IMG/VR virus record: IMGVR_UViG_3300014208_000043 | Span: 1,690-65,689 of that record | From: a virus | Taxonomy: Duplodnaviria > Caudoviricetes | Direction: 5' to 3' (one strand) | DNA: 64,000 nucleotides | Shown: positions 23,584 to 63,386 of the stretch, piece after piece | Layout: every line of letters starts with the position of its first letter | Position numbering within the stretch: the stretch's first letter is position 1 | Position numbers and translations under genes: made by a program | The notes under the pieces: generated by a model | What the model saw: the letters and a program-made list of their open reading frames with translations, nothing else | Database searches by the model: none | What the model was told of the DNA's origin: nothing

Positions 23584-23605
23584 AAGGCAGCGCAAATGGC
23601 ACTTC

Positions 23606-23773: not shown

Positions 23774-24169
23774 ATGTCAGAGTTCAGAAACGAATTTGAG
23801 GGCTATTTAGGGAAGGGCGCTTTCAAGTTCCTGAAAGTCGCGTCTATCCTGGCAGCGATTTACATTTTATCGGCGCTTGTGTTTGGCTTATTCCCGTTCT
23901 CCGTGGCGTCCGGTGTTGTGAACAAGGTTGTTAATTCGACCGCAATCATTAATAATTATCAGTGGTTTTACGACCAATACAACACCATCCAGGCACAGCA
24001 AGCAAACTATGAATCTGTTCCGGTCGATGCTTACGAGCGAAACGGGATGCGGATGGTGCTCAATAACTCTATCGCTGAATACAATTCCCGGTCAAAACAA
24101 ATAACGCGGAATCTTTGGAAAGCAGATAACCTGCCCTATCAAATCAATTTAATTGGAGGTGGAAAGTGA
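23774..24169 (+). CDS. Membrane-anchored protein (cassette 9, gene 1)
   Basis: TM then NYQWFYDQYNTI...IAEYNSRS; SD GGAGG. Confidence 0.75.
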   Translation: MSEFRNEFEGYLGKGAFKFLKVASILAAIYILSALVFGLFPFSVASGVVNKVVNSTAIINNYQWFYDQYNTIQAQQANYESVPVDAYERNGMRMVLNNSIAEYNSRSKQITRNLWKADNLPYQINLIGGGK

Positions 24170-24690: not shown

Positions 24691-24710
24691 AGAGCGCGTC
24701 TTAAAACAAC

Positions 24711-24817
24711 ACACAACATTTGCCAAGGTGGTTCAGCGCGTTCCCGCGCTTCAACCCAAATGCCGGAACGATTTGATTAGCAGATTCCGGCACTTCACCT
24801 TGGCAAGGACGTTGTGT
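24711..24817 (+). repeat. attC-like site 9 (last of array 1)
   Basis: Near-identical to site 3; ACACAAC...GTTGTGT. Confidence 0.85.
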
Positions 24818-24851
24818 GTAATTTTGTCCGCAAGTGATGAAAAGAGCTAAT

Positions 24852-47691: not shown

Positions 47692-50600
47692 GTGGCTAAG
47701 AATTTGTTGGACAATTTCAATCCACTGGATTCCTTTAATCCATCCGAAAATAAAAGTAGCCTTGATGATTTTAACCCATTGGATAGTTTTAATCCAAATG
47801 ATATTACAGTTAAAGCGCCAACATCAATATTGGGCGTTCCGGTTTTAGATGGCCCCGGTAATGGACCGATTGAAACCAAAAGTAAAAACGCCCAACCCGT
47901 TAATATTTCAGAAGTAGAAATACCAAAATTTCAGGACGTAAGTAAGGTGGATATTCCTGCGTCCGTAGTGGCGGAACCGGCTACGACATCTATAAAATCG
48001 GATGTGTTGGATGATTTTAGTCCATTTCCAGATACCTATATGGCTGGAACAAAAATTCCTACATATAAAAATATTGAACAAAACAATCAATCCAAAACAA
48101 TTTTCCCAGAAAATGCGCCAATAGAAATTGCCGTCCCTCAGCCCGAAAAAGAAAAGCAAGATAATATAATCGGTAGTAGCGCAAAAGCCTTTAATGCTGG
48201 AAGCGCTGCCGTATTGCGTGGCCTTGCCAGGACTCCGGCCTTGGCAGCAAGCGTCGTTGCAACGGGAAGCAACATAATAAATAGTGGAATAAATAAGGCC
48301 ATGGGCGCTGATATTTTTAGAACAGACCTAAAGGCCGCCCCAGAAACTTATGATAACTTTGTTACGCAATATCTTGATAATGTTGCAAGGCGTGATAGTT
48401 ATGTCCAAAAAGAATTTGGATCAAAAGACATATCTCTTACTGATTTGTTAAAAAGGCGGCAAATTGGAGATGCGGCTAAGTGGCTATACTTTAGCACCGT
48501 TGAACAAGTTCCGCAACTCGCTCTTATTGGTGCTGGAAAGATGGCCGGAATCAGCGATGCCGCAGGATTAGTTGGATTGTCTGCAAGTAGTGGAGCCGAG
48601 CAAATAACCGACTATTGGAAAAAGCTTGAAAGGGGAGAGTCGGTTCCAAGCCAAACGGTAGCAACAATGGCCTCGTTAGTCAACGGAAGCTTTGAGGGCC
48701 TTTTTGAGAAGATGGGATCGTTTGCCATACTAGACAGAATGACAAATGCGCTAAAAGGTGTTGGCAAAAAAGAAATACAAGAGGGAGTGTTCCCGGCACT
48801 TAAAACGATATTTAAAGAAATGTTTAAATCTGGGGGTCAGGAATTTGCAGAGGAGGCGGGGACCGCCGTTGCACAGGGAATTGTTGATAAGACAACGGGA
48901 ATGAGGCCGGATTTAACATGGAGTCAAATCACAAAAGAGGCTTTCGAGAATGGAATGGTTGGTCTTACATCCGGGGGTGTTCCTGGGGCCGTAACCGGAA
49001 TGGCAATAAACGTAAATGAGAACGAAAAGAATAAGAGGGCAGCAATCGTTGACGCTTTGAAAAAGACAAATCCTGAGATGGTTGACCAGCTATTGAAATC
49101 TCAAGAAGACATAACATTTGATAAGCTATTAAATAAAGAAATCCCTACACAGCAGAATACCAAGCGATCCGGTTCGGAGATCTATCGCAATCTCGTACCG
49201 GAGGTTCAGGGGGCAACTATTGAACAAGGAGGCGTTAGCGAGAAGCCACCAGAAACACCAACCGCGAGCACGGAAACAGCTCCTCCGCCGGAAATCCCAC
49301 CCGCTACAACTACGGGCCAGACGGGCCCGGCGGAGAAACCGTCACGCCTTCCAAAGAAAAGCGATATTACCTTACAGGAATTCGATGCTCTTCCCGCCGA
49401 GGATAGACAGCGTATTCACGAACAAAATGACGTTACCGGGCGACCCGGCCTAGCCGCATTCAACAGGGTTCTTAAAACCAGAACGAATAACTATACCGCC
49501 CCAACCTATGTTGCCGTTGGGGATGTTAACGGATTCAAGGTTTATAACGACATGCTTCTGGGATCGCAAGCCACCGACGAATTGAATGGAAAAATGTTCG
49601 ACATCTTTGAAAAGCATCTAGGAAAAGACATGAATTCCAATATTCATGGGGATGAGCACATGGCGTTTGGCGATTCTCCCGAGGCCTTGCGAGATAAATT
49701 AGCCGCCGCATCCAAGGAGATTGCCGAGACCCTTGCGATAAAAATGGACGATGGAAAAATTTATCGCCCCACAATGAAATGGAAGATAGGAAAAGTGCAA
49801 ACGAGAGAGGGCGCAGGAGCCCTTAACGCCAAGGATCTTGACAACGATATGATTGGATTTGACAAATCGCTTGGAAAAATATATACTTCTATTAGGGCGG
49901 CCAATGTGCCCGAAAATGAACTGGTTACTCGAAAACTGATTGAGGCTAAACCAGAGGAGAAAAAAAATGAAAACAACATTCCCGACACCGGAGTCGGAAC
50001 AGGAACTCCGGGAGAGCAGGGCAAAGAAAATAAAACGGTTAGCCCCGATACAAGAGTGGGAGAAGCCGCGACCAAACCAGTTCAACCCGTCGTCCCAAAT
50101 CAGCCCGAACCAAAAGTAAAAAAGGAGAAGGCTCCACCGCCTCCTCCTCAGACCCCAGAACCAACACCTACAAACCCGACGCTTATTGCCAAACGCAAGA
50201 AGCTTATTGAAACCCAAAAAAATGTTGCTACGGCAGGCGACAATGATCTTTTTGAAGCAAAGAAGGTTGCTGACCAATACTTATCCCAGGTAACAGCCAA
50301 AGACCCGCAGGCCCAGGCCGCGGCGAAAGCCGTTATAGATGAAATCTATGACCGAGGCTTTGAGTATCGAGGCGGGAAGTATGAACAAGTGGAAAAGCTT
50401 GGAGTAAGAAAGCTTGCAAGGCAACTGGAAGCCGAAGACCGCGTAATGCGGGAGCCGGAAAGCGCATACTCTTCCCTGTCAACGCAGAACGGGTTTGAAA
50501 TCATAAAAGACGGCCTGCTTAACAACATCCCAACAAAGTTTAAAAACAAACCGAAATACAAATACACAATCAACACCCCCGCTGATGTTGTCGCAAAGAA

Positions 50601-53600
50601 AAAGAAAATGCTGGAGACGGACTTTGTTAATGACTTCTTTGGCGTTAATCCAAAATACGAATACTACGATTACGAAAAACAAATTATCAGACCCCTTGAT
50701 ACTTTAAAGTCAAAGCGTACCGGCCTCGACCAGTACGCCGAAGAAAGCAATCTTGATGCTGAAAAGATAAAAGACGCGATGGACGCCGCCATTGAAGGGT
50801 ATTACATAAAAAAGGGCTACTCTGAAGGCGTAAGCAAAGGAGAGGCAAACAGGGAATCGAAAAAGAAAGACTATGTTGAGCGCGCCAGAAAACAGATTGA
50901 ACAAGAAGACGCCTATTCCAAATACGAGGAGGAGCAGCAGAGGAAAAATGAAGAGGCCATACCCTTCAGCCGTTGGTATGAAAACAAATTGTTGACAAAT
51001 GTTAGCAATAAATCTATATTAGGGAAGGAGGCAAAAGATGAAAACAAACCCGTTTCTACTAAAGCTCCTTCTCAAAAACAGCCCGGAACCTCGGAGTCGG
51101 GGAAGGCTACCACTGAAGAATTACGGCCTAGAGACAGGGGAAGAGCGGTCGAGCTTCCAGTGGCAAGATGGGAGAGACCTGGAGACGCTCAAGAGTCATT
51201 CCGAAACCTTATTGACGAACTTCAGAAAGAACCCGGTGGCAGGAACATTACAGATGATGACGTTCAGGTTGTGGAAACTCCTGCGGATGTTTCTGATGCG
51301 CTTTCCACTCTTCGGGATGTTTTGCCCGTTCATCGTGTTATGGTGGTTAGAACTAAGGCCTCAGTACCAGGCTTCGACGGGGTTTTCCTCAAGAAAACTG
51401 GCACATTAGTATTCAACGAAAACATGAAGAAGCCCATTCTTTGGGTTGCCCTTCACGAGATAAAGCACAAGATAGACATCGACTTTCCTTCTGTTGCAAA
51501 ACATTTCAACGACTTCTTTAATTCCCAATTAACACCAGAGGGCCGAGCGGCAAGGCGCAAGAGGGCGCTTGCTGAAATATCCGGCGTCCATGTTAATGAT
51601 TACGATAGGCTTTCGACACAGCAAAAACTGGATGCAGAGGGCAGGCTTACCTCCGCTCTTGAGGACAAAATAGGAATCGGAGAATTGGCATCGGACTTTA
51701 TGGCCGACTCTTTCAATTACGATTCAAAGTTTTTGACCTATCTTTCCAAGAAAAACCCCGGACTATTCAAGAAGGTAATCAAATCCTTCATGGATTTGCT
51801 CACGAAGATTATCAATAAATTCAAGGGCAGTCCGAGAGTCACAAAAACAGAATGGTTCAAGGATATGGGCGCCATGCGGAAGGCGCTGGCCCGGATGGTT
51901 GTGAATGTTGGCGACAAGGTGCGCTTTGAGAACGCGGCCAAGGAATACGATTCCATTGTTGATGAATTTCTTTCCATGGTCAAAGAGGATTTTGAGAAGC
52001 GTAATATTCAGTGGAGCCGGGGACAGGCGGATTTATTTGGTGAAGTAGAATCCCCCGAAAAGATTGCCATTGAAAAGTTCAAGCGCGAGAAATCAGAGAA
52101 AGAGGCTGCCACAAGAAACCCTGAAGTCATGGCCTTGCCGATATTCAATAAGAACGAGACGGCGAGGGCTGCGGAGGCACAGCAGTCTTTGTTTTCTCGT
52201 TCCGAAAAATTCAAGCCCGTCGATACCGAAAGCCCTGAATTTAAGAAATGGTTTGGCGATTCAAAAGTTGTTGATGAGAATGGATATCCGCTGAAGGTTT
52301 ATCATGGGACGACGCACAAATTCACCATCTTCAGCAAGGATCGCGGAAACATGGGAAACCATTATGGCCGCGCTTATTATTTCACCGATTCTAAACTCGA
52401 TGCCGAACAAAATTATAGTGGTATTGGCCCAGACCTAACCCATAGGATAGACCTGAGAACGGAAAGGCTGTTTGATGAGATTGTGGGAGATAAGCCGCCT
52501 AAGTATGGAACGAAAGAATACAATGCGATGATGAGAAAAGCCAAGAAGCTGGCTACAAAAGAACTGTCTGGTGGGAAAGAAACGCTCATTGAAGCCTATG
52601 TCTCTCTTAAAAATCCAGTTGTTTTGGTTGGGGAAAACCAAACTCGATTTGAAATGACTTTTGACGATGATACTGGAGAGGAGGGCGGGAGTGCGCTAGA
52701 GTTATATGCCGCTCTCGATCGAACCGCTGCTGTCTTTGGTATTAATGGTCAGGACGTATGGAATGCTATCTCTGAAAAATTGGATCTTTCGGACTTTACC
52801 GCAAAAGAATTCGAAGATGCAATGAGGGCAAGTGAGACTGTATCGTATATCGAAGATCGGGATACTGGCGATCTTGCCGGAAACGAGTTCATATCTACAT
52901 TGTGGAATAATGTCGGGTTTGATGGAATAATCATGGATGCTGATGAGGCGTTCGGGAATAGGCGTGCCATCGGGAAAAAGATGATGATGGATGAAGGAAC
53001 AAAACATTACATTGCCTTTTCCCCCACGCAAATAAAATCTGCCATTTCCAACACAGGGGAGTTTGACGCAACAAATCCGGATATCAGGTTTTCCCGCACC
53101 TCGCAAAACGAAATCGACAAGAAGATAGAAGAGGTTTTCAGCGAGGCCCCGCGCAAGCCAGCCGACGACACAAAGATTAATGTCCCCCAAAGCGTGAACG
53201 ATGACGTCCAGCACCGGATGAGAATGGCAAAGGGAATTAAGCCACCGCCATTCTATAAAAACATCGAGCCTGCCCTTGTTAAAATCGCCCAAGCCTTTAC
53301 CCGGCATTATACCGGACTTGGAAAAGAGGATGCCGCAGTTGCCGATATTCTCCGCCAGTTCGAAGCGGTTCCCGAGTATTCGCAGGCCATCTCCATGAAC
53401 CTTATGCACAAGATAACGGATGGTCTTGGAAAGAATGGATACGACTTATTCTCGAAAGCAATCATCCTGCCCGACCTGGTTAAGGATATCGACCGCGGCC
53501 TTTACGAGGGCAAGGATGCACTTCCCTTTGGATATAAAAACAGGGCCGAGATTCAGACTGATATCGACAACGTGCAGGCCGAGGTTAAGAAAAACCCCAC

Positions 53601-55818
53601 GGTTGAGGCCGCAATCAAGATGCGCCAGGAGATTAACCGTGCCATTAAAGAAGATTTGGTAAAATACGGCCTTCTCAAGAAAGACGTTCTCGAAGACGAA
53701 GCCTATTTCCACCATCAGGTGCACGACAAGATTGCCGAAAGAGGCTTTTTTGGAATAGGCGCATCCAGTTCCGACGTTCGGGCGCACAAGGCCGGATTCA
53801 TGCGCGGCCGTACCGGTTCCGTTCTCGACTACAATACCGAGTATCTTGAGTCCGAGGGTGAGGTATTGGCACAGGCGATATCGAGAATCGAGACGCTCCG
53901 GACACTGAAGAGACTGAAGCCACTGGTCGATATCTCTGATAAGCTTCAGGCCCAGGCCAAAACTGAAAAGAAGCCCATAGAAGCCGTTATCCCTGAAGGG
54001 TACACGCAGTGGTCTCCAAAAGAGAACACTCCGTTCTATCCGGCAAAGACGATTCCAGAGGAATTAATAGATGCCTTATTAAATAATGTAGATGTTGGCC
54101 CAATTACTGAAGATGACGTAAAAACAGTCATTACGATGGGCCGCAAGGCACAATGGATCGTTAAGGAGGGTGTCGCTGAAACGTTGGATAATCTCAAGCC
54201 TCCTAAATCAACCGGCCCGATGGGTAAATTCGGAGACGCTCTTCAATATGTAAACAACAAGTGGAAGCAGTGGACGCTTTTAATGCCGCTCCGGATTGCA
54301 AAATATAACCTGAACAACATGAGTGGAGACCTTGATATTGTACTGGCATACAACCCGTCAATTCTGAAAGGATTTATCCCTGCCGCCAGGGACGCCTGGA
54401 GACTTATCGTTAAGAAGGAATCTCCAAACGAAGAGATGCTTGGCCTTATTAAGCGGGGTGTGATTGGCTCCGGATTCGCAACCCAGGAGGTTCCGGATAT
54501 AAGTTTTGTGAATATGTTCCGGGCGCTTACCGGGAAAAAGCCAGGTGTTGGAGGTAGGATAAAGCAGGCCGCAGGATGGAACCTTGGAAAGACGATTACG
54601 GAGTGGCGGGAAAGCATACTGAGGATTGCCGCCTATCGGCACTTTAAGGCCCAAATAGAGGCCGGGAAGACGGTTTACGGGGCATCCAAGGCTGATGAGG
54701 TCAACCAGGTCGAGAGCACCGAGGACAAGGCCGCAAAGATGGCCCGTGAACTCTTGGGCGATTACGGCAACCTTTCCGCGGCAGGGCAGGCGTTAAGGTC
54801 AAAACTGATGCCATTCTGGAGCTGGATGGAGATTAACGCTCCCCGCTACATGAGGCTTATCAAAAACGCCCACAAAGAAGGTCGCTCCGGATTCAAGTCT
54901 GGAGCGGTTGCCGGATCACTAAAAACGGCCAAAGTCATTCTTGCCGCAAACATCTTATTCGCCATGGTCACTCTTTGGAACAAGATGTTCTTCCCGGATG
55001 AGGAAGAGGAATTGGGTGATTCAAACAGGCAGCTCCACCTTATTCTTGGAAAGAATGACGATGGAACAATCCGGACCCTCCGGGTGCAGGGCGCCATGTC
55101 CGACGTCCTGAACTGGGCCGCACTCGAAGATTATCCTGACGACATTATGGATTTGGCAAACAAAAAATCCACCATTGGAGAAAAGGCGAAAGAAGCTGGT
55201 ATTTCAACTCTTTCAAAGCTTTTCAATGGTATCGGGCCGCAATACAAGACGCCGCTTGAAATGTACGGAAAGACCAAGCGTTATCCGACAATTGATAAGC
55301 CCCGGCCCGTAAGAGACGTTTACGAGCACCTTGCCGGAGTGTTGTCCGTCGATAAGCCCTATCGCCTTATTGCCGGGAAGCCCACAAAGGGTATTGCCGC
55401 AGAGGGCGAGGGCGCACTTATCTACAAGAGCATCCCCGGAGAAGCCGCGTATTACGACATGCTCAATAAGGCGAGGAAATTTCTCGACCAGAAAACGGAA
55501 GGCGAGAAAATATCTATTACCCCGACTGAGAAAGCGAACGACCTTTATTATTACAAGCAGGCAATTCGCTTTGGAGACATGAAGGCGGCAAAAAAATATC
55601 GGGATAGATACAAGGCGAAGGGCGGGGACTACTCTTCGATGATTCAGAGCTTCGAAAGAATGGGGCCGATGTCCGCATACTCTGGAGAGAACGCCCAGTA
55701 TATCGACGAATTCGAAAAGTCGCTCACGCCAAAAGAGTTCGACAAATTAAACAGGGCACAGGCGTGGTATGAGCAATTCAGAGATGCCGCACTTAACGAT
55801 CCCGGATGGGAGGAATAA
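47692..55818 (+). CDS. Large polyvalent protein (2708 aa): GGDEF-like, HExxH metallopeptidase, ART-PolyVal-like, LPD38-like
   Basis: DVTGRP...DVNGFKVYND...HGDEH; LHEIKH...ELASDF; FKKWFGDSKVVD...VYHGT...YYF...YVSLKNP...GFDG...QIKS..NTGEFD; ELLGDY...PFWSW; FSR-type linkers. Confidence 0.8.
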   Translation: MAKNLLDNFNPLDSFNPSENKSSLDDFNPLDSFNPNDITVKAPTSILGVPVLDGPGNGPIETKSKNAQPVNISEVEIPKFQDVSKVDIPASVVAEPATTSIKSDVLDDFSPFPDTYMAGTKIPTYKNIEQNNQSKTIFPENAPIEIAVPQPEKEKQDNIIGSSAKAFNAGSAAVLRGLARTPALAASVVATGSNIINSGINKAMGADIFRTDLKAAPETYDNFVTQYLDNVARRDSYVQKEFGSKDISLTDLLKRRQIGDAAKWLYFSTVEQVPQLALIGAGKMAGISDAAGLVGLSASSGAEQITDYWKKLERGESVPSQTVATMASLVNGSFEGLFEKMGSFAILDRMTNALKGVGKKEIQEGVFPALKTIFKEMFKSGGQEFAEEAGTAVAQGIVDKTTGMRPDLTWSQITKEAFENGMVGLTSGGVPGAVTGMAINVNENEKNKRAAIVDALKKTNPEMVDQLLKSQEDITFDKLLNKEIPTQQNTKRSGSEIYRNLVPEVQGATIEQGGVSEKPPETPTASTETAPPPEIPPATTTGQTGPAEKPSRLPKKSDITLQEFDALPAEDRQRIHEQNDVTGRPGLAAFNRVLKTRTNNYTAPTYVAVGDVNGFKVYNDMLLGSQATDELNGKMFDIFEKHLGKDMNSNIHGDEHMAFGDSPEALRDKLAAASKEIAETLAIKMDDGKIYRPTMKWKIGKVQTREGAGALNAKDLDNDMIGFDKSLGKIYTSIRAANVPENELVTRKLIEAKPEEKKNENNIPDTGVGTGTPGEQGKENKTVSPDTRVGEAATKPVQPVVPNQPEPKVKKEKAPPPPPQTPEPTPTNPTLIAKRKKLIETQKNVATAGDNDLFEAKKVADQYLSQVTAKDPQAQAAAKAVIDEIYDRGFEYRGGKYEQVEKLGVRKLARQLEAEDRVMREPESAYSSLSTQNGFEIIKDGLLNNIPTKFKNKPKYKYTINTPADVVAKKKKMLETDFVNDFFGVNPKYEYYDYEKQIIRPLDTLKSKRTGLDQYAEESNLDAEKIKDAMDAAIEGYYIKKGYSEGVSKGEANRESKKKDYVERARKQIEQEDAYSKYEEEQQRKNEEAIPFSRWYENKLLTNVSNKSILGKEAKDENKPVSTKAPSQKQPGTSESGKATTEELRPRDRGRAVELPVARWERPGDAQESFRNLIDELQKEPGGRNITDDDVQVVETPADVSDALSTLRDVLPVHRVMVVRTKASVPGFDGVFLKKTGTLVFNENMKKPILWVALHEIKHKIDIDFPSVAKHFNDFFNSQLTPEGRAARRKRALAEISGVHVNDYDRLSTQQKLDAEGRLTSALEDKIGIGELASDFMADSFNYDSKFLTYLSKKNPGLFKKVIKSFMDLLTKIINKFKGSPRVTKTEWFKDMGAMRKALARMVVNVGDKVRFENAAKEYDSIVDEFLSMVKEDFEKRNIQWSRGQADLFGEVESPEKIAIEKFKREKSEKEAATRNPEVMALPIFNKNETARAAEAQQSLFSRSEKFKPVDTESPEFKKWFGDSKVVDENGYPLKVYHGTTHKFTIFSKDRGNMGNHYGRAYYFTDSKLDAEQNYSGIGPDLTHRIDLRTERLFDEIVGDKPPKYGTKEYNAMMRKAKKLATKELSGGKETLIEAYVSLKNPVVLVGENQTRFEMTFDDDTGEEGGSALELYAALDRTAAVFGINGQDVWNAISEKLDLSDFTAKEFEDAMRASETVSYIEDRDTGDLAGNEFISTLWNNVGFDGIIMDADEAFGNRRAIGKKMMMDEGTKHYIAFSPTQIKSAISNTGEFDATNPDIRFSRTSQNEIDKKIEEVFSEAPRKPADDTKINVPQSVNDDVQHRMRMAKGIKPPPFYKNIEPALVKIAQAFTRHYTGLGKEDAAVADILRQFEAVPEYSQAISMNLMHKITDGLGKNGYDLFSKAIILPDLVKDIDRGLYEGKDALPFGYKNRAEIQTDIDNVQAEVKKNPTVEAAIKMRQEINRAIKEDLVKYGLLKKDVLEDEAYFHHQVHDKIAERGFFGIGASSSDVRAHKAGFMRGRTGSVLDYNTEYLESEGEVLAQAISRIETLRTLKRLKPLVDISDKLQAQAKTEKKPIEAVIPEGYTQWSPKENTPFYPAKTIPEELIDALLNNVDVGPITEDDVKTVITMGRKAQWIVKEGVAETLDNLKPPKSTGPMGKFGDALQYVNNKWKQWTLLMPLRIAKYNLNNMSGDLDIVLAYNPSILKGFIPAARDAWRLIVKKESPNEEMLGLIKRGVIGSGFATQEVPDISFVNMFRALTGKKPGVGGRIKQAAGWNLGKTITEWRESILRIAAYRHFKAQIEAGKTVYGASKADEVNQVESTEDKAAKMARELLGDYGNLSAAGQALRSKLMPFWSWMEINAPRYMRLIKNAHKEGRSGFKSGAVAGSLKTAKVILAANILFAMVTLWNKMFFPDEEEELGDSNRQLHLILGKNDDGTIRTLRVQGAMSDVLNWAALEDYPDDIMDLANKKSTIGEKAKEAGISTLSKLFNGIGPQYKTPLEMYGKTKRYPTIDKPRPVRDVYEHLAGVLSVDKPYRLIAGKPTKGIAAEGEGALIYKSIPGEAAYYDMLNKARKFLDQKTEGEKISITPTEKANDLYYYKQAIRFGDMKAAKKYRDRYKAKGGDYSSMIQSFERMGPMSAYSGENAQYIDEFEKSLTPKEFDKLNRAQAWYEQFRDAALNDPGWEE
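49859..49887 (+). promoter_or_regulatory. Internal near-consensus sigma70 promoter within the giant gene
   Basis: TTGACA, 17 nt, TATACT; downstream GAGGAG and +1-frame ATG at 49967. Confidence 0.5.
50989..51020 (+). promoter_or_regulatory. Promoter/operator, copy 3, inside the giant gene
   Basis: TTGTTGACAAATGTTAGCAA; TTGACA, 17 nt, TATATT; then GGAGG and +1-frame ATG at 51038. Confidence 0.65.
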
Positions 55819-56204
55819 TGGAATGCAAAACCCGCGCTGAACAAAATCGCCATTTTACAAAAATGCGTCTTGAGTTTGAGTATTGGCTTTTTGAAAAGGG
55901 ATGGCCATGGCGACAGGCAGAGGCAGCCAGAACCATGGAGTATGCAGAGATATTAGCCAAAGATGGAAAGGGAAAACTTGACACTCTCCATAGATATAGC
56001 CTGGCCGACGACTATTGGCTCACAACAGATAATGGTCTCGACATAAAATGGATTGACTCCAGATATCAAGAGATGGGGGAAAAATGGGAATCCCTTGGGG
56101 GCTGGTGGGGTGGCAGGCGAAAGAAAAAACTTCGCAATGGAAAGGTAGTCTCCGACCCAGATGTTTATCATTTTGACCTTGGACAAAAACCTTTGAAATA
56201 CTAA
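55818..56204 (+). CDS. M15-family peptidase (L-Ala-D-Glu-type endolysin)
   Basis: TLHRYSLADD (SxHxxxxAxD-like), WESLGGWWGG, DVYHF. Confidence 0.7.
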   Translation: MECKTRAEQNRHFTKMRLEFEYWLFEKGWPWRQAEAARTMEYAEILAKDGKGKLDTLHRYSLADDYWLTTDNGLDIKWIDSRYQEMGEKWESLGGWWGGRRKKKLRNGKVVSDPDVYHFDLGQKPLKY

Positions 56205-56251
56205 ACTGCTTTATTTATATTCATAATTCCCTTCTTAACACAACCCCTACA

Positions 56252-56278
56252 AAGGCCCCTAACCGGGCCTTTTTATTT
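56252..56278 (+). terminator. Intrinsic terminator
   Basis: AAGGCCC-CTAACC-GGGCCTT then TTTATTTT. Confidence 0.75.
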
Positions 56279-56290
56279 TAATTAAAATAA

Positions 56291-56322
56291 ATGTTGACAA
56301 TTGTTAGCAATTTGATTATTTT
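56291..56322 (+). promoter_or_regulatory. Promoter/operator, copy 4
   Basis: ATGTTGACAATTGTTAGCAA; TTGACA, 17 nt, TATTTT; followed by ATCATCATGCGAAA as in copy 1. Confidence 0.75.
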
Positions 56323-56328
56323 ATCATC

Positions 56329-56520
56329 ATGCGAAAAACAAGAACACAAAAGAGTAAACCTAAAGATGGAATCCCAAGCGCATTCCACTGCTTCGGAGAA
56401 CACATTGTTAAGCAGGGCCGAAGCATGGAAGAGGCGTCGATTGCGAATCAGTGGTCTTGGTATCATGCGGGATGGTCGAAGCATCGGCAGCTTCTTGAGA
56501 ATAATAAGAAAGAAAAATAA
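56329..56520 (+). CDS. Hypothetical protein
   Basis: ATG 6 nt after the -10 box, same context as ORF 366. Confidence 0.55.
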   Translation: MRKTRTQKSKPKDGIPSAFHCFGEHIVKQGRSMEEASIANQWSWYHAGWSKHRQLLENNKKEK

Positions 56521-56747
56521 TGAATAAAGGCATTAACGATTTACCTTCAGATGGGTGGAGAAATCCATATTGCAATAGCCCTTCATTCTTAGGCCATTGG
56601 CATTACGTTAAGGCAGGAACAAAAATTATGGATTATGAAAGGTCTCGCTTGGTTGGATATCCTATGTTTGGAAATATGGCAATGCTTGGACATGAAGAGG
56701 GTGGAGGGATCTTGCTTAAATACTTGGTGCAATATGGAAATGGATGA
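56520..56747 (+). CDS. Hypothetical protein
   Basis: Coupled start (TAATG). Confidence 0.5.
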   Translation: MNKGINDLPSDGWRNPYCNSPSFLGHWHYVKAGTKIMDYERSRLVGYPMFGNMAMLGHEEGGGILLKYLVQYGNG

Positions 56748-57117
56748 CTCTTCCTACCACTACCGTCCCGCCCCGTACAACATGAGAGACAAGACGGATT
56801 CCGAATTGAGGGAAGAAGAGATTTTAGAAGAAACCGTAAAGCTCGAAATAGGAGAAGAAAACATGGGAAAGCCGCTTGATGAGAACGTCGAAAAAGAGGC
56901 CAGGAAGTTTTTCAAGACTATGCCGGACAACGCAAAGCTTTTTATCCAGCACCACATTCGGAATTGCCTTTTCCCGATCCCATTCATAATCCACAAACTT
57001 GAGAACCGGGAGACGATTACGCAGCTTCAGGTGAATTACGTGAAAAGCGCACTCGAACATCTTACCGCTGACCTTAACACTATAACCGGAAGCGAGAATG
57101 AACAGTCTCAAGGATAG
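56734..57117 (+). CDS. Hypothetical protein
   Basis: Acidic N-terminus then helical region; start uncertain. Confidence 0.5.
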   Translation: MEMDDSSYHYRPAPYNMRDKTDSELREEEILEETVKLEIGEENMGKPLDENVEKEARKFFKTMPDNAKLFIQHHIRNCLFPIPFIIHKLENRETITQLQVNYVKSALEHLTADLNTITGSENEQSQG

Positions 57118-57568
57118 ATACTACACTCCCCCCAGGTGCTACGAGAGCCTTCCTATTGACTGGGGAATGTTTTATTCAGCTCTTGAGCCGGCGGCAGGAG
57201 ATGGAAGGATTGCAAGGTTCCTTACTGGCAAGATTAGGGACATCCAGACATGCGAGATCGACATTGGAATTGATTTCTTTAAGTATGAATGGAAAGGCGA
57301 TCTAATACTCACCAATCCACCATTCTCGCTTTCTTTAGAATTTACTGAAAGGTGCGTAGAGATATCGAATACGTGTATTATGCTTCACCGTCTAGGGTTT
57401 CTCGCATCGCAGGATAGGAAAGATTTCATGAAAGCACATGAGCCGTGCTCCATATATGTTCTTTCTAATAGGCCGTCCTTCACCGGAAAAGGAACCGACA
57501 ATTCAGATTACGCGTGGATTTGTTGGGATAGAACAAACAGATTGCCAAGGGGAATATTTCATATTTAG
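57098..57568 (+). CDS. Compact N6-adenine DNA methyltransferase-like protein
   Basis: YYTPP, ALEPAAGDG (motif I), ILTNPPF (motif IV), YAWICW. Confidence 0.8.
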   Translation: MNSLKDRYYTPPRCYESLPIDWGMFYSALEPAAGDGRIARFLTGKIRDIQTCEIDIGIDFFKYEWKGDLILTNPPFSLSLEFTERCVEISNTCIMLHRLGFLASQDRKDFMKAHEPCSIYVLSNRPSFTGKGTDNSDYAWICWDRTNRLPRGIFHI

Positions 57569-57618
57569 GGGCATGGCCGGATAAAGGGCGAAAACATAAC
57601 GCCCTTTGCAAGTTGCAT
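57566..57618 (+). other. Leader site of cassette array 2 (attI-like or half attC)
   Basis: AAAGGGCG...CGCCCTTT GCAA GTTGCAT; shares motif with 19683-19724. Confidence 0.5.
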
Positions 57619-57669
57619 GCAATTTTGGCCGAAAGACATTAAGAGCGCCGCAAGGCAAGGAGAAGAAAG

Positions 57670-57951
57670 ATGTTAAACAAGCGTGATTGTGGAGCGATTG
57701 CCGCCGCAATGATTGTACGGCAATATTGTGACGAGGCAAATGGTTGTATTGGTTGCGTTTTTGATTTCGATGATAAGAGAGCAGATCTATTACCGCTATG
57801 TCCATTTGCCACAAATCCAAGACACTGGAAGTTTTTAGAAGAAGCGGCGCAAGGCATCGGCCAAAACAGCATGCAACAAGCGCCAGCACGAAATGGCGGG
57901 CAAGAAGATGAGCAGAAGCCCGCCACATCGTGCGATCCGGAAGCGCAATAA
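57670..57951 (+). CDS. Hypothetical Cys-rich protein (cassette B1)
   Basis: SD GGAG; C-terminal MQQAPARNGGQE...PATSCDPEAQ shared with the RNA ligase. Confidence 0.65.
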   Translation: MLNKRDCGAIAAAMIVRQYCDEANGCIGCVFDFDDKRADLLPLCPFATNPRHWKFLEEAAQGIGQNSMQQAPARNGGQEDEQKPATSCDPEAQ

Positions 57952-57989
57952 TATTATGGTCGCGCTCCCGGTGGCGCGGTCCGTTGTGT
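57871..57989 (+). repeat. attC-like site 10
   Basis: ATGCAAC...GTTGTGT; near copy of site 1. Confidence 0.85.
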
Positions 57990-58053
57990 GTAATTTTAAG
58001 ACGCGCAAGACAATTAAACCAGCGCCCAAGGGCGCAAAACAAGGGAGAAGAAA

Positions 58054-58422
58054 ATGGTACAAGAACTTTACGATGACTATGTTGAGGCTAAACGAGCTGT
58101 AAGAGGGGCCGAAGAATGGAACGCCCTCCCTGACGGCCCGATATATGAGTCCGGCGGTAAAATGGATGTTGCAATATCGCACTCTACAGCTCCTATGCTT
58201 ATGCGCATTGGCCAGCAAAATGCCGGTGGGAAAAATTATTGGGAATCTCCATCCGAACTTAATGCGGCAATTCTATATATCCTTGTAAGGGAGCAAGACG
58301 AGATAATAGAAAAGGCCATTTCTTATTTAAAAAGAGAAGAAGAGATGAAGCTTATTAAAGCCCAAAGATTTGTTGATGAGTTGCAAGATAAAATAAACTC
58401 AGTTAAAGGCGGCGCGTCTTAA
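58054..58422 (+). CDS. Hypothetical protein (cassette B2)
   Basis: 122 aa; leader near-identical to the cassette 9 leader. Confidence 0.7.
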   Translation: MVQELYDDYVEAKRAVRGAEEWNALPDGPIYESGGKMDVAISHSTAPMLMRIGQQNAGGKNYWESPSELNAAILYILVREQDEIIEKAISYLKREEEMKLIKAQRFVDELQDKINSVKGGAS

Positions 58423-58428
58423 AACAAC

Positions 58429-58535
58429 ACACAACATTTGCCAAGGTGGTTCGGGCCGTTCCCGGCCCTCAACCCAAATGCGCGAAACATTAGATTTTTT
58501 GAATCGCGCACTTCACCTTGGCAAGGCCGTTGTAT
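58429..58535 (+). repeat. attC-like site 11
   Basis: ACACAAC atttgccaaggtg...caccttggcaaggcc GTTGTAT. Confidence 0.85.
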
Positions 58536-58574
58536 GCAAAACCGCCACAAGACAAAAACAAAAAGGAGAAAAAG

Positions 58575-58751
58575 ATGGAACAGTGGAAATGCTCAAAGTT
58601 TGACAAGGCGAACAAGTGGAACGTGTCTGGCACTACGACAATTCATCCTACATTCGCCGAAGCCAACCACAGGGCGACGGAAATCCTTAATGACCTTGGG
58701 GATTTAGGTCGGAATATTTATTCTGTTATGCTGGAGCCTATCATTGTTTAA
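58575..58751 (+). CDS. Hypothetical protein, 58 aa (cassette B3)
   Basis: SD AAGGAG; MEQWKCSKF... Confidence 0.6.
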   Translation: MEQWKCSKFDKANKWNVSGTTTIHPTFAEANHRATEILNDLGDLGRNIYSVMLEPIIV

Positions 58752-58766
58752 GAGTGGCGGTTCAGC

Positions 58767-58820
58767 ATACAACTAGCAAAGCACGGCGTTTCACTGCCGT
58801 GCATTTGCCGGACGTTGTGT
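58767..58820 (+). repeat. attC-like site 12 (54 nt)
   Basis: ATACAAC ta GCAAA-GCACGGC...GCCGTGC-A-TTTGC cggac GTTGTGT; one extrahelical base. Confidence 0.85.
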
Positions 58821-58875
58821 GTAATGCTGTCCGAGATAGCCGAAGAGTGTGCGCAATACAAACGAGGAGAATGGC

Positions 58876-59085
58876 ATGAAAATTCTAATGTTTGAAAATG
58901 TTGACTTTTACGAATTTAGATTTGAAGGGAAAATAGCTAGAATGTATGAAAGGCAATATGTCCAAGACAGGGCAAAACAGATGAACGATAATAAGCCAAA
59001 TGCTTTTTTAGATGCCTTTAGGAAAGAAATGGGGTTCAGGAATATAGGAGCGCGCACGGAATCGGGCAGCACAACACACAACTAG
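58876..59085 (+). CDS. Hypothetical protein (cassette B4)
   Basis: SD GAGGAG; MKILMFENVDF...; stop just inside the attC. Confidence 0.6.
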   Translation: MKILMFENVDFYEFRFEGKIARMYERQYVQDRAKQMNDNKPNAFLDAFRKEMGFRNIGARTESGSTTHN

Positions 59086-59129
59086 CAAAGCACGTAGTTT
59101 CCACTACGTGCATTTGCCGGACGTTCTAT
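59076..59129 (+). repeat. attC-like site 13 (54 nt)
   Basis: Same family as site 12 with a compensated inner stem (GCACGTAG/CTACGTGC); right core GTTCTAT. Confidence 0.85.
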
Positions 59130-59185
59130 GCAATACAACCGCCAAGGCAAAGAAAAGAGCGCGCCCTAAGAAAAGACAAAGCAAA

Positions 59186-59944
59186 ATGAAACCATATTAC
59201 GAACACGCCGGAATCACAATCTATCACGGAGACTGCCGGGAAATTTTAATTCAGCTCGCCCCGGATTCCGTGATAACAGACCCGGTTTGGCCGAATGCAA
59301 GGGTTCCGCTTTTCGGACAAAAAGACCCGTTCGGAATGATGCGGGAAATGGTCGCAGTCCTTGCCGATTCTTGCAAGCGCCTTGCCGTCCATCTTGGCTG
59401 TGATAGCGACCCGCGTTTTTTAAGTTCTGTCATGCCCCTGGTTTTCCCGTTCTTCCGTGTGGTCTGGTTTGAATATGCTCGGCCACATTATAAAGGGCGT
59501 TTGATGTACGGCTCTGATGTCGCTTACCTTTTCGGCATCCCGCCCAAATCCCGGAAAGGCGCACATGTTATTCCGGGTAGGCTCATTGATGCGGATTCAA
59601 GCGGCCGCCAATCAGACCACCCGTGTCCTCGTAAAATAGGTTTTGCAAAATGGCTCGTTAATTGGTGGAGCGATTTGAATGATTTGGTTTGCGACCCATT
59701 CATGGGGAGCGGAACCACATTGGTTGCGGCCAAACAATTAAACCGGCGAGCAATCGGAATTGAATACGAGGAAAAATACTGCGAGGAAGCGGCCCGGCGT
59801 TTAAGCCAGGAAGAATTATTCGGAACGGGCGCGCAAGACCAAAGGCAGGCGGTTGTACAGCATAGAACAAGCGCAAGGGCAAAAGGCACGGAAGAATTGA
59901 ATTTGGAGCCGTGCCCTTCGCCCGCCCCGGACGCGCTTAAATAA
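59186..59944 (+). CDS. Beta-class N4/N6 DNA methyltransferase (cassette B5)
   Basis: IYHGDCRE, VITDPVW (DPPY-like), HPCPR, VCDPFMGSGTTLVAAKQLNRRAIGIE; tail encoded by the attC. Confidence 0.9.
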   Translation: MKPYYEHAGITIYHGDCREILIQLAPDSVITDPVWPNARVPLFGQKDPFGMMREMVAVLADSCKRLAVHLGCDSDPRFLSSVMPLVFPFFRVVWFEYARPHYKGRLMYGSDVAYLFGIPPKSRKGAHVIPGRLIDADSSGRQSDHPCPRKIGFAKWLVNWWSDLNDLVCDPFMGSGTTLVAAKQLNRRAIGIEYEEKYCEEAARRLSQEELFGTGAQDQRQAVVQHRTSARAKGTEELNLEPCPSPAPDALK

Positions 59945-59980
59945 ATATGGAATGCGCGTCCGGTTGCGCATCCGTTGTCC
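59862..59980 (+). repeat. attC-like site 14 (last of array 2)
   Basis: ATAGAAC aa GCGCAA...TTGCGC atcc GTTGTCC; branched like sites 1 and 10. Confidence 0.8.
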
Positions 59981-60012
59981 GACATTGAAACGTCGCACAA
60001 CAAGAAAGTAAA

Positions 60013-60405
60013 ATGACAAACCTTCAAAAGAGGATATCTAAATATAAGCGCGACAACCCTAGAAAATCGGTTGTGCAAAAATATAAAAACACCAAGTGTA
60101 GGTGTTCACATAATCATATTCATGCCAGTAGGAAAGAGGCCCGCGACTGCGAAAAGGTGGAGATGCTTAAAAAGAGCGGGGAATTCAAAGAGGCAAAAAC
60201 ACAAGTAAGCTTTCCGCTTTACGCATATTCAGCAGGGATAAAGGTTCAGGTTTGTACTCATATTGTTGACAAGCTTGTTACACGGAAAGATGGAACGCAA
60301 GAGGTGATCGAAACGAAAGGTTTTTGCACCCCAGAGTGGGCCCTGAAAAGGAAACTATTTGAGGCAAACTACCCAGACATAATTTATTCAGTTTGGCGTT
60401 GCTAA
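60013..60405 (+). CDS. DUF1064-like restriction-fold endonuclease/resolvase
   Basis: KYKNTK, HASRKEA, HIVDKLV...VIETKGF. Confidence 0.7.
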   Translation: MTNLQKRISKYKRDNPRKSVVQKYKNTKCRCSHNHIHASRKEARDCEKVEMLKKSGEFKEAKTQVSFPLYAYSAGIKVQVCTHIVDKLVTRKDGTQEVIETKGFCTPEWALKRKLFEANYPDIIYSVWRC

Positions 60406-60419
60406 ACAGAGAGGACTAA

Positions 60420-60665
60420 ATGAACCAAGCGATTGAAAACCTGAAAGAGCTTGCCAGGGGCATGAAGCAGACGGCGAAAGATTACGGAGGATCCAGAATT
60501 TCCAGAGAATTCAACATCGCGGCAGACCGGATAGGCTTCGAGCTTAACCGCATCGAGAAAAACATGGACGATATGTGGGCGGAAATCGGGGCGCAGGGTC
60601 ACGAGCTTAACACCATCAAGGACGGCCGCATTTATAAAATATTAAAAGCATTGCATATTTTATAA
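60420..60665 (+). CDS. Hypothetical protein
   Basis: SD GAGGA; 81 aa. Confidence 0.6.
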   Translation: MNQAIENLKELARGMKQTAKDYGGSRISREFNIAADRIGFELNRIEKNMDDMWAEIGAQGHELNTIKDGRIYKILKALHIL

Positions 60666-60679
60666 TTTGTATATATATT
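60651..60679 (+). promoter_or_regulatory. Possible promoter of the terminase genes
   Basis: TTGCAT, 17 nt, TATATT, 6 nt before ATG 60686. Confidence 0.5.
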
Positions 60680-60685
60680 TTAGGC

Positions 60686-61264
60686 ATGGGCGCTAAGTCC
60701 AAGACTCCTAAAACTGAAGAGCCAAAGGCAAAGCTTGGTAGGCCGATGAAGCAGGACTACAAGCCAGAATATTGCCAAGACATTATCAATTATTTCAAAG
60801 TCACAGAGCTTTATAAATCCATTCCAAAATTTGTGTCATATTATCCCGCCGAAAAAGGGAGCACCGCTGAGCATGGCGGAATAAAGTCACAGGCGTTTGA
60901 GATTGTTGCCACGACACCGGCGCACCTTCAGGCTTGGGCCAGAGAGAAGGGGATCGACCGGCAGCGGATTCATGTCTGGAGGAAAAAGTATCCTGAATTT
61001 GCCGAGGCCGTCGATATCTGTAAGGATATGAGATCTGAACTTATTCGGGACAATGGGCTTAATGGGATGTATGATGCCAGGTTTGCCCAGATGGCGGCGA
61101 TGAACTATGCCGAGGTGGGGTGGCGGATGAAGACTGAGAATAAGCCTGACGTAAACGTTACTGACGTAAATTTAAACGATGTATGGAAAGAGAGGGAGAA
61201 GAAAATAGAAGAAGAAAAGAAAGAAGCCGAAAAGAAGAATAAGAAAACAGCAGATGGAAAATGA
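60686..61264 (+). CDS. terS: Terminase small subunit (P22 gp3-like)
   Basis: GRP..DYKPEYC, WRKKYPEF, GLNGMYDARFA; immediately upstream of the large subunit. Confidence 0.75.
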   Translation: MGAKSKTPKTEEPKAKLGRPMKQDYKPEYCQDIINYFKVTELYKSIPKFVSYYPAEKGSTAEHGGIKSQAFEIVATTPAHLQAWAREKGIDRQRIHVWRKKYPEFAEAVDICKDMRSELIRDNGLNGMYDARFAQMAAMNYAEVGWRMKTENKPDVNVTDVNLNDVWKEREKKIEEEKKEAEKKNKKTADGK

Positions 61265-63386
61265 ATCCCAATCAAGAACACCTCGTTCATTTTTAGCCCT
61301 ACCGAAAAAAGCCACTGATTATTATTTACACCACAGCTACGAATTTGTTTGCGATTTAATTTTAAAGCCCGTATGGCATTTATATAAGCCAAGCAAACAG
61401 CAAAAAACATTTTTAGACGCTTACGATAAATACAACAGAATCCATGTTGATAGCGGACACTCTACAGCCAAAAGCACAACAATGAGTTGGATGGGAATCC
61501 ATTTTCTAGTTTGCCGACCATCTTTAAATTCTGAGTGCAAGGTCCCGTGTACCGCCCCAACAATGACACAACTTAAAGATGTCCTTTGGGGAAACTTTAG
61601 CAAGTGGATAGGGATTTCTCTTATTTCCGATGATCTTGTTTGGCAGGAGATGAGCATAAAGCATACAAAGATGCCACACCCTCACTATGCGGCTATTCGG
61701 CCATCTAATCGTGCGGCAAATATGCAGGGCCAGCATGCCAAGCATCTTCTTTGGCTTATTGATGAGGCCTATGGAATAGTTAAGAATGACGTATGGGAAA
61801 CAATAAACGGATCCCTTACCAATGATGATAATAAAATAATAACCGCCGGGCAGCCCACAATGGTTACTGGCTATTGTGCCGATCTGAAAAATCCAAAGAG
61901 AAGTCCGGAATACATCGAACCGAGGGGAATATGCCTAAGATTTAGCTCCCTGGATGCCCCGCCAAGCATATGCAAGCCTGAATGGCTTGAGGATATGAAG
62001 AACAAATGGGGCGTCACCCATGACGTTTACCGGGTCCGAGTGCTCGGGCTCCCACCATTAGGCAACCCAAAGGCCTTTATAACGCTCCAGGAGGCCCAAG
62101 GAGCCGTGGATCGGGAAGAAGTCGATACGACGGGAGCCGTTGAAATTGGTGTTGACCCTGCCCGGGATGGAGACGACCTGTGCGTTATGGCCGTCCGGAA
62201 GGGGTGTAAGTACTTTCCGCTTGAAACGATGCCGAAATCCGACGAAATAGAAATAGCCGCCATGATTTTGCGCCGGGTCCGGGAGATAAGGATGGAAAAG
62301 GATCCCGCTTTCCCGTACCGTTTAGGCTTTAAAGGGAGAATTCGCGTTAAAATCGGCGTTGCCGGTGGTTACGGTGCCGGCGCCGCGGACATCCTGAAGC
62401 GGAATAAGAAGGACAATATCGAGGTTGTCGAGGTTCAGGAGGGCGGCGGGGGCAATGAGGATTACGGAAACGCCTCCGCGGTAATGTGGGCCGAATTCAA
62501 GAATGCCCTGCCGAAGCTTTCCCTTCCGGACGACGACGACCTTGTGGGCCAGCTGTGCAGCCGGGAGACCGACATCGACATGAAGGGCGGGAAGACCTGG
62601 ATGGAGGCGAAGAAGAAGTACAAGGCCAGGATGGGCCACTCCCCGGACCGGGCGGACGCCGTTATAATCTGCTGGACGGAGCAAGCGGCCAAGGCCAAGC
62701 TGATTGAAGGCGATATTTCCGGGAGCTCAACGAAGATTGTGGTGAACTGGAAAACCCTTTCTCCGGAAACCGTTCCGATGATTGCGCTCTATACCGATAA
62801 GGAAACGAAGACCGGTGCGGCCGTGGTACTCTGGAAGCAGGAGACATCAACCGTTTACGTGCTTCTTTCCAGGGATTACGATTGCGCCAGGCCGGAAAAG
62901 ATTTTCGCTGATTTATCCGAAACCATGAACCGCATCTCCGATGGGTTTGTCCGGAACATTAAAACCTTTGAGTGGTTTGGGAACAAGCCGTATGACAACA
63001 TCGGCCTCGGGACAATACGGGACACCTGGAGCAAGGCCGGGATAAACGTAAGAGCGAATCCCATGTTCAATATCGACGGAGCCGTCCTTGCCGTGAACCG
63101 CTTTCTATCCAGGAAAGGAATTATATTCGATGACGTTTGGGCCGGGCAACTCATTGTTGATTTGCAGGGTTGGTACGCTGAAGAAAAAGAGGGTGCGCCG
63201 AATTCTATCCTTGCGCTTGCTTCGATAATCTCAGTGATAAATGACGGGACATACATCAACCGGCAGCGGCCAATTCCAAAGTTTTCACCTGAGAGCACAG
63301 AGGTAAAAAAGAGATTCGAGGAAAATATTCAGACGGGAAGACCCTTCGGACAGACCAATGCGGATTCTGATTCTTGGATGTTTTAA
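61254..63386 (+). CDS. terL: Terminase large subunit with C-terminal extension
   Basis: Walker A SGHSTAKS, Walker B LIDEA, nuclease IGVDPARDGDD, SPDRADA. Confidence 0.9.
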   Translation: MENESQSRTPRSFLALPKKATDYYLHHSYEFVCDLILKPVWHLYKPSKQQKTFLDAYDKYNRIHVDSGHSTAKSTTMSWMGIHFLVCRPSLNSECKVPCTAPTMTQLKDVLWGNFSKWIGISLISDDLVWQEMSIKHTKMPHPHYAAIRPSNRAANMQGQHAKHLLWLIDEAYGIVKNDVWETINGSLTNDDNKIITAGQPTMVTGYCADLKNPKRSPEYIEPRGICLRFSSLDAPPSICKPEWLEDMKNKWGVTHDVYRVRVLGLPPLGNPKAFITLQEAQGAVDREEVDTTGAVEIGVDPARDGDDLCVMAVRKGCKYFPLETMPKSDEIEIAAMILRRVREIRMEKDPAFPYRLGFKGRIRVKIGVAGGYGAGAADILKRNKKDNIEVVEVQEGGGGNEDYGNASAVMWAEFKNALPKLSLPDDDDLVGQLCSRETDIDMKGGKTWMEAKKKYKARMGHSPDRADAVIICWTEQAAKAKLIEGDISGSSTKIVVNWKTLSPETVPMIALYTDKETKTGAAVVLWKQETSTVYVLLSRDYDCARPEKIFADLSETMNRISDGFVRNIKTFEWFGNKPYDNIGLGTIRDTWSKAGINVRANPMFNIDGAVLAVNRFLSRKGIIFDDVWAGQLIVDLQGWYAEEKEGAPNSILALASIISVINDGTYINRQRPIPKFSPESTEVKKRFEENIQTGRPFGQTNADSDSWMF

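Follow-up and report, generated by a model that had tools for sequence, protein, structure and literature searches.

Rows of attC-like hairpin cassettes in a phage genome, each bracketed by a split stem formed from its own two ends

The 64,000-nt stretch of DNA analyzed here (the window) comprises bases 1690–65689 of the 65,689-bp IMG/VR record IMGVR_UViG_3300014208_000043, a phage genome of the Caudoviricetes, drawn from groundwater metagenome data, that has direct terminal repeats, is rated 100% complete and carries every gene on the + strand. Our subject is array 2 (57612–59982), a row of five co-oriented gene cassettes that hold four small open reading frames (ORFs) without family matches (ORFans) and one N4/N6 DNA methyltransferase gene, and that end in imperfect hairpins resembling attC, the recombination sites of integron cassettes. 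Each unit starts with GTT(G/C)YRTGY-AA, contains a single ORF on the + strand and finishes with ...CA-RCAYR(C/G)AAC. A first-pass annotation, made from the letters alone, had described this row as a second attC-like array that uses the site families of another one in the same genome, and our site alignments confirmed that description. The reference, array 1 (19683–24819, + strand), begins with the same leader and contains nine arm-bracketed cassettes, including one with an RNA ligase gene; its site families and one of its cassette frames are common with array 2.

All five cassettes claimed in that annotation could be located, every one on the + strand and between a pair of inverted arms. Cassette B1 (57612–57877) lies between arms at 57612–57632 and 57857–57877, which are paired at 19 of 21 positions, the mismatches being the fixed AA/CA described below. 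It encodes a Cys-rich protein of 93 amino acids (aa), whose ORF (57670–57951) runs through the 3′ arm into the hairpin that follows, site 10. Cassette B2 (57983–58435) has 24-nt arms (57983–58006 and 58412–58435) around an ORFan of 122 aa (58054–58422), while B3 (58529–58773) has arms at 58529–58548 and 58754–58773 and an ORF of 58 aa (58575–58751). In B4 (58814–59082; arms at 58814–58834 and 59062–59082) the stop codon TAG of the 69-aa ORF (58876–59085) sits immediately 3′ of CAAC. The last unit, B5 (59123–59868), is bracketed by arms at 59123–59143 (GTTCTATGC-AA-TACAACCGCC) and 59848–59868, and its ORF of 252 aa (59186–59944), which runs into site 14, codes for the N4/N6 DNA methyltransferase (PF01555, 6e-18; phrog_67, 3e-34). 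The proteins of B1 and B3 gave no match in Pfam or PHROG, and none of the B1–B4 proteins had a homologue in the ~3 Mb of phage DNA compared. Two homologues of B2 were found among 5.8 billion proteins, on contigs of 1.8 and 2.7 kb, and atlas look-ups of B1 and B2 returned nothing usable. We also observed that the RNA ligase ORF of array 1 and the B1 ORF run via the 3′ arm into the same site family (at 20699–20795 and 57857–57951, respectively) and have the tail ...MQQAPARNGGQ...PATSCDPEAQ in common; the ORFs of B4 and B5 likewise terminate within their sites.

An inverted repeat of 20–24 nt brackets every cassette of both arrays. The first-pass annotation had noticed part of it, as a compensatory pair in the methyltransferase cassette: B5 starts with the aberrant core GTTCTATGC, and its own 3′ arm ends in GCATAGAAC. 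This GTTCTAT/ATAGAAC pair is indeed present, and, as had been proposed, changes in the core are matched at the 3′ end of the same cassette, but the co-variation extends over 21 nt rather than over a 7-nt pair, which is only the tip of the repeat. The arms are described here from an alignment of 22 cassettes, which come from this phage and from two others unrelated to it. They form a split stem that starts with GTT and six paired bases of variable sequence, is interrupted by a fixed AA facing CA without pairing, and continues for ten more paired bases, again variable. Positions 1–3 are invariantly GTT. Positions 4–9 vary and yet are paired, at 5.5 of 6 positions with the cassette's own end versus 3.0 with the ends of other cassettes. 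Position 10 is A·A in 17 of the 22, and at position 11 no cassette shows pairing (A·C in 21 of the 22). At positions 12–21, where all four bases are used, the own end pairs at 9.6 of 10 positions and the ends of other cassettes at 3.2 of 10. When array 2 was taken by itself, own-end pairing at positions 4–21 amounted to 78 of 90 for the five cassettes, a value reached by none of 44 derangements. Moreover, a detector of own-end pairs run over the 64-kb window returned 14 pairs, which correspond to 13 distinct cassettes, all of them within the two arrays, and 0–1 matches on reversed-sequence controls. Transposase-mobilized elements with terminal inverted repeats were considered and rejected, since the repeats match within each cassette yet differ between cassettes.

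As an integron control we used a sedentary array of Vibrio anguillarum with intI and 15 attC repeats, contained in phage record MK672802; an integron of Photobacterium was dropped as a control, as its array is off the contig. Twelve Vibrio cassettes were paired with their own ends at 6.9 of 7 positions from 1 to 7, often on to position 9 or 10, and at 1.8 of 10 positions from 12 to 21. Because the Vibrio array pairs at positions 1–7 but not at 12–21, we regard the co-varying core as a signature of integrons, to which the bubble and the outer 10-bp helix are additions. The whole genome of Tetrasphaera phage TJE1, which carries a published cluster of attC sites lacking an integron integrase (CALIN), was scanned as well and contained no arm-type own-end pairs. 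These results bear on an alternative in which the cassettes belong to a mobile system peculiar to phages and different from integrons. The functional site would be the own-end 21-bp stem, looping out the gene on single-stranded DNA, and a host-encoded enzyme, for example a Xer-type recombinase or a structure-specific nuclease together with ligation, would cut the base of that stem. It gains from the fact that the outer helix and the fixed bubble are kept in the 22 aligned cassettes of three phages, with detector matches in four further contigs, and are absent from both the Vibrio integron and the TJE1 cluster; the 9-bp own-end pairing, however, occurs in a true integron too.

The hairpins of array 2 are imperfect and measure 40–105 nt between AAC and GTT, or 54–119 nt with the 7-nt boxes; over the whole set of sites the length ranges from 54 to 151 nt. 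AAC and GTT bound all five sites of array 2 and 13 of the 14 in the window, R boxes of 5–9 bp are found at 12 of the 14 junctions, and the cores seen (GTTGTGT, GTTGTAT, GTTGCAT, and GTTCTAT) have a pyrimidine at position 5. Site 10 (57869–57991, + strand like the four that follow) is a Y-shaped double hairpin between ...GCATGCAAC and GTTGTGTGT with folding energies of −34.3 kcal/mol on the top strand and −35.6 on the bottom strand. Its resemblance to site 1 (20710–20838), noted in the first-pass annotation, held on alignment; site 14 (59860–59982), which ends in GTTGTCCGA, is a diverged member of this family, whose mean column identity is 85%. Site 11 (58427–58537) had been assigned to the family of sites 3 (21416–21526), 8 (23604–23710), and 9 (24709–24819), and aligns with them at 90% mean column identity. 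Site 12 (58765–58822) is a single hairpin of 54 nt with the stem GCAAA+GCACGGC and one bulged base, and site 13 (59074–59131), also of 54 nt, is its sister with a compensated inner stem (GCACGTAGT/ACTACGTGC). The compensation predicted for these two sites is real, as two pairs are changed on both sides (G-C to T-A and C-G to A-T), and so is the single extrahelical base, with one bulge each, which reads A on the top and T on the bottom strand. The R box of site 13 is unable to pair within the array, because ACACACAAC faces GTTCTATGC.

A covariation check, which the first-pass annotation had proposed, was run on the site families and found changes on both sides of pairs beyond those in shuffled alignments. 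In the site 11 family five pairs are changed on both sides, a number that none of 500 shuffles reached, and 97.9% of the cells are paired versus 26–41% when the partners are slid. The site 10 family has six such pairs, again reached in 0 of 500 shuffles, and over the two larger families sliding the partners lowered pairing from 93–98% to 23–49%. Since the families hold 3–4 sequences, we take this covariation as supportive and not as conclusive. A search with an exact 18-mer of the site 11 family gave four unrelated chance matches only, and the sites had no match in Rfam, a collection that includes no family for attC.

Hairpins between co-oriented genes could also act in RNA. Under this alternative the hairpins and arms would be expression elements (terminators, RNase III processing stems, or stabilisers) and not recombination sites, and in its favor the elements lie between genes, at regular intervals and in the same orientation as the genes, and array 1 contains an RNA ligase gene. 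Long-range stems that enclose a gene also resemble the rRNA processing stems cut by RNase III. We therefore folded both strands of 21 inter-cassette sites from three phages with DNA parameters. The bottom strand, which is complementary to the mRNA, gave the stabler fold in 20 of the 21 sites, compared with 35% of 400 random windows from the same phage, so the mRNA-sense strand is nearly always the worse folder. G·T wobbles numbered 33 in bottom-strand folds and 5 in top-strand folds, as against 352 and 324 in the controls, and the A·C found at arm position 11 on the mRNA strand corresponds to G·T on its complement. A stem in mRNA would accommodate G·U but not A·C, and the A·C mismatches on the mRNA strand, together with the better folding of the bottom strand, therefore disfavor processing stems and terminators. 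In addition, terminator-like matches were at the level of chance (9 versus 7.8), the hairpins lack T-runs, Rfam gave no match, and the RNA ligase is itself cassette cargo. These observations argue against the sites being mRNA structures, and we consider a role as RNA expression elements very unlikely. Two narrower candidates were rejected. One was a reading as RNA splicing or ligation, suggested by the RNA ligase gene; the ligase is inside a cassette, and the mRNA strand is the poorer folder. The other was an N4-type hairpin promoter for a virion RNA polymerase; the 2708-aa protein of this phage has an ADP-ribosyltransferase domain and no polymerase match. N4 promoters are, besides, far smaller and less varied than the hairpins of the arrays.

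Each array begins at the stop codon of an unrelated gene with TAGGGGCA, followed by a hairpin and then by the 16-mer CCTTTGCAAGTTGCAT, which occurs exactly twice in the window, at 19710 and at 57603, once per array head. In array 2 this leader, a candidate entry site, spans 57566–57611 (+ strand) and consists of TAGGGGCA, the hairpin AAAGGGCG/CGCCCTTT, and GCAA immediately 5′ of the first GTT. The leader hairpin forms in both arrays; the stem sequences differ and the pairing is kept, that is, the changes are compensated. With its stem, short spacer, and GTT, the leader is built like a site reduced to its right half, the left ...AAC box being absent. The leader shared by the two array heads supports the view that they are two entry points of one kind, and lends some support to the suggestion of two fixed landing pads in the first-pass annotation. 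At the opposite end a mini-hairpin without cargo (59974–60003, + strand), made of GTTGTCCGA, 10 nt, and TCGCACAAC, closes array 2 before the DUF1064 gene. Its folding energy is −8.9 kcal/mol (z −2.8) for the bottom strand and −5.8 kcal/mol (z −1.1) for the top strand. It may represent a cassette frame that is empty, or else the right half of what was originally the target site.

Signs of movement come from cassettes that differ in cargo and agree in frame. B2 and the array 1 cassette at 23702–24717 have common 24-nt arms, a common 61-nt leader, and a site of the same family around unrelated ORFs, and the cassettes at 21147–21424 and 23069–23612 likewise present a shared frame around unrelated ORFs. 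The RNA ligase, which lies within a cassette of array 1, is 71% identical to the product of a gene adjoining the array of an otherwise unrelated phage of 34% GC, and a 53% homologue of the B5 methyltransferase adjoins an RNA ligase in a GC-rich phage without any sites. Finally, a solitary cassette in another phage has a site at its 3′ end only, followed by GTT, as insertion at G|TT predicts.

The same frames could have arisen by homologous exchange. In this alternative the repeated sites are portable homology, and the phage exonuclease, RecT-like annealing protein, and single-stranded DNA-binding protein (SSB) shuffle genes by short-homology recombination with no site-specific enzyme, in the manner of the promoter early stem-loops (PeSLs), whose shuffling is documented in T4-type phages (PMC2839356, Arbiol et al., 2010; PMC4122927). 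Besides that precedent, the phage does encode these three proteins along with an endonuclease VII-like and a DUF1064 protein, site families recur four times, and the two cassette pairs have identical leaders and trailers of 59–61 nt around their unrelated ORFs, which looks like exchange within flanking homology. Nevertheless, homology does not account for the cassette-specific 21-nt own-end pairing, for an invariant GTT/AAC and a fixed AA/CA bubble in phages of 34–56% GC, or for the compensated stems and the folding strand bias. We judge homologous shuffling to be an unlikely explanation of the arrays.

A search for further arrays, another check proposed in the first-pass annotation, was run in viral contigs and found arm-type cassettes in six other contigs of IMG/VR, with GC contents of 34–56% and 1–7 cassettes each; in G002 and in G004 the cassettes are found at two separate locations. 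A tail-fibre domain is the only protein segment that the carriers share, and it is found in five of the seven. In our phage the tail fibre (39225–42188) has this common segment in its C-terminal part, which may point to related hosts. A 34%-GC phage, L088 (G001), has copies of a 125-nt site at 1858–1985, 2219–2345, and 9161–9295 that, translated in frame, supply three distinct cassette ORFs with their C-terminal part (...QQLKAEIAALV...KLRQLSAV), so that the site doubles as coding sequence; at ~11850–11930, downstream of its RNA ligase gene, the DNA resembles the 3′ end of a tRNA or tmRNA (T-arm plus CCA).

We favor the interpretation, with a probability of about 0.65, that these are cassettes for integron-type single-strand recombination, as in the published integrase-less attC clusters of phages, in a new variant with an extended stem and with the enzyme supplied in trans. 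Cassettes would be excised and inserted in circular form, with single-stranded DNA folding on its bottom strand and exchanging strands there at G|TT. The start of a cassette would then pair with its own 3′ end because, as we infer, its first bases complete its own site in the circle. The 9-bp box, the 2-nt bubble (AA over CA), and the 10-bp helix would form only from the two ends of one cassette, and a stem of this length is expected to make the folded site more stable in the free circle; where the array is single-stranded DNA, the gene would be looped out by it. The most likely point of entry would be the leader ...CCTTTGCAA|GTTGCAT, with which both arrays begin. The enzyme would come from the host or from a co-infecting element and would most likely be a tyrosine recombinase. 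The cargo is presumably accessory, and the methyltransferase probably protects against host restriction.

Several observations weigh against this interpretation, first of all those on the enzyme. The complete genome is without a match to PF00589, PF00239, or PF01797 (tyrosine, serine, and HUH Y1 recombinases); the PF00589 search was made at E ≤ 1, and a control search matched in all 14 reference genomes. PF00589 was equally without a match in any of the seven cassette-bearing contigs, and neither PF00239 nor PF01797 was found in G001, G002, G004, G005, and G007, with G006 searched for PF00589 only. Clustering all ORFs by BLAST revealed no protein common to all seven carriers. A narrow pattern scan of 185,579 bacterial genomes, with a pattern that recovered four true arrays in viral contigs, gave 73 matches, none of them arm-type, and the lack of arm-type cassettes in the bacterial genomes scanned counts against free exchange with host integrons; it is also weak evidence that the cassette pool may be specific to phages. 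The sites themselves depart from the defining features of attC, which include a spacer of 5–6 nt per arm and extrahelical bases near L″ (PMC5027507, Nivina et al., 2016). Here the spacers are unequal, with 2–4 nt after AAC and 4–5 nt before GTT, versus 5–6 nt in each arm of attC. The two or three extrahelical bases that attC has near L″, at 6-bp spacing, are missing; a bulged base occurs in sites 12 and 13 only, on the 5′ arm of the bottom strand rather than on the 3′ arm near L″ as in PMC5027507. Movement, moreover, is deduced from shared frames and from the distribution of genes; excised circles, empty sites, and presence/absence polymorphism were not seen, close relatives being out of reach.

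Some of the same observations suit the non-integron system introduced above. No integron-type extrahelical bases are seen, the bacterial genomes scanned contain no such cassettes, and seven recombinase-free contigs would fit a near-universal host enzyme. Own-end pairing is also retained at the junction of B4 and B5, where pairing with the neighbor is lost. On the other hand, the junctions have the canonical attC geometry (AAC, spacer, stem, and GTT), no candidate enzyme was identified, and the bacterial scan used one narrow pattern. As formulated, with a host recombinase or nuclease cutting the base of the stem, this explanation appears quite unlikely to us. The broader proposition, that the 21-bp split stem (9 bp, AA/CA bubble, and 10 bp) defines a phage-specific family of mobile cassettes distinct from integrons, moved by an enzyme that none of the carriers encodes, for example of host Xer type or a novel structure-specific one, with the own paired ends, in place of the canonical attC features, giving both recognition and strand choice, is tentative and somewhat doubtful, if conceivable.

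The early region of the genome contains the genes for the exonuclease, the RecT-like annealing protein, SSB, and the endonuclease VII-like protein, and is followed by a 12-kb glycan-building island. The portal gene is at 26667, the tail fibre gene at 39225, and the gene for the 2708-aa polyvalent virion protein at 47692–55818 (+ strand; ADP-ribosyltransferase domain PF18760, 6e-17). The two arrays had been said to flank a virion-to-lysis module. They do flank the virion block, from the portal gene to the end of the polyvalent protein gene at 55818, but no lysis gene was identified there. Array 2 is preceded by a methyltransferase gene at 57098. Downstream of array 2 the DUF1064 gene (60013), whose product matches a PHROG family annotated as Holliday junction resolvase, is followed by the terminase genes. 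The segment 26040–26300, which separates array 1 from the portal gene, is dense in GGACA/TGTCC repeats and includes a 23-nt palindrome, and could be iteron-like or regulatory. Upstream of array 2 there is a terminator-like hairpin with a T-run at 56251–56272 and then a promoter-like TTGACA-17-TATTTT at 56294–56322, which is likely to be the start of a transcript running through array 2. Promoter-like matches were not enriched over 55500–61500, a segment that includes array 2 (13 versus 9.1 ± 3.0 expected). A search of IMG/VR with the terminase of this phage returned nothing close, and terminases 46–62% identical exist in assemblies only. An alignment-based search of metagenome and viral contigs reached relatives of ≤39% identity, among which G002 alone had arm-type cassettes, and the sole complete relative reached (39% terminase identity) had no such cassettes.

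These arrays bear on a poorly understood process, the acquisition and exchange of small accessory genes by lytic phages; examples of such genes are anti-restriction methylases and ORFans with a probable role in anti-defence. They offer a compact case, with 14 cassettes, two entry points with the same leader, no recombinase of their own, and an architecture common to phages of 34–56% GC. If the cassettes are active, phages would trade genes via a recombination activity supplied in trans. The extended stem, if active, may lock the cassettes, stabilise the free circle, or replace extrahelical bases in strand choice, and frames that recur around unrelated ORFs bear on the origin of integron cassettes.

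Among known systems, PeSLs are alike in being repeated intergenic stem-loops that occur on either side of small accessory ORFs, lie in variable regions of lytic phages, and have been connected with the shuffling of genes. However, PeSLs work by homology and consist of conserved promoter and terminator sequences, while no promoter consensus is found here and the only conserved letters are GTT, AAC, and AA/CA; the motifs of our arrays vary, with compensated stems, an AAC/GTT core, and cassette-specific end pairing. The likeness to integron cassettes goes further. Each unit has one promoterless gene, all in the same orientation, and a 3′ imperfect hairpin, here of 54–151 nt, bounded by ...AAC and GTT..., with unpaired bases spacing the outer box from the inner stem, a conserved structure, and little conserved sequence. 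The start of a cassette is complementary to its own 3′ box, which we also measured in the Vibrio array. In integrons the bottom strand is the strand that recombines (PMC5027507), and the bottom-strand preference seen here agrees with that rule, although folding is indirect evidence. The differences are that there is no intI gene and no recognisable promoter-plus-attI platform, that the core is GTTGYRT and not GTTRRRY, so that only the triplet of the RYYYAAC/GTTRRRY consensus is kept, that the own-end stem is lengthened by a fixed 2-nt bubble and 10 further bp, and that there are two arrays per genome, in a virulent-looking phage. Because the consensus, the spacers, and the extrahelical bases differ from those of attC, we describe the sites as working like attC and not as members of that family. 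The closest published counterparts are the integrase-less attC clusters of virulent phages, whose sites IntI1 is able to recombine (PMC9892861, Qi et al., 2023). In layout, with five sites in 2.4 kb and no integrase, array 2 would fit a CALIN (at least two attC sites near each other and no integron integrase nearby), provided that its sites, which depart from attC in two features, count as attC. As in the phage CALINs of that study, cassettes bounded by attC-like sites stand in integrase-less rows, and DNA methyltransferases are recurrent cargo. The clusters in the figures of that paper have ~2–4 sites and were found by integron software, whereas the present genome has 14 cassettes in two arrays, and the extended stem is apparently an undescribed variant of the kind of phage element already described there (PMC9892861).

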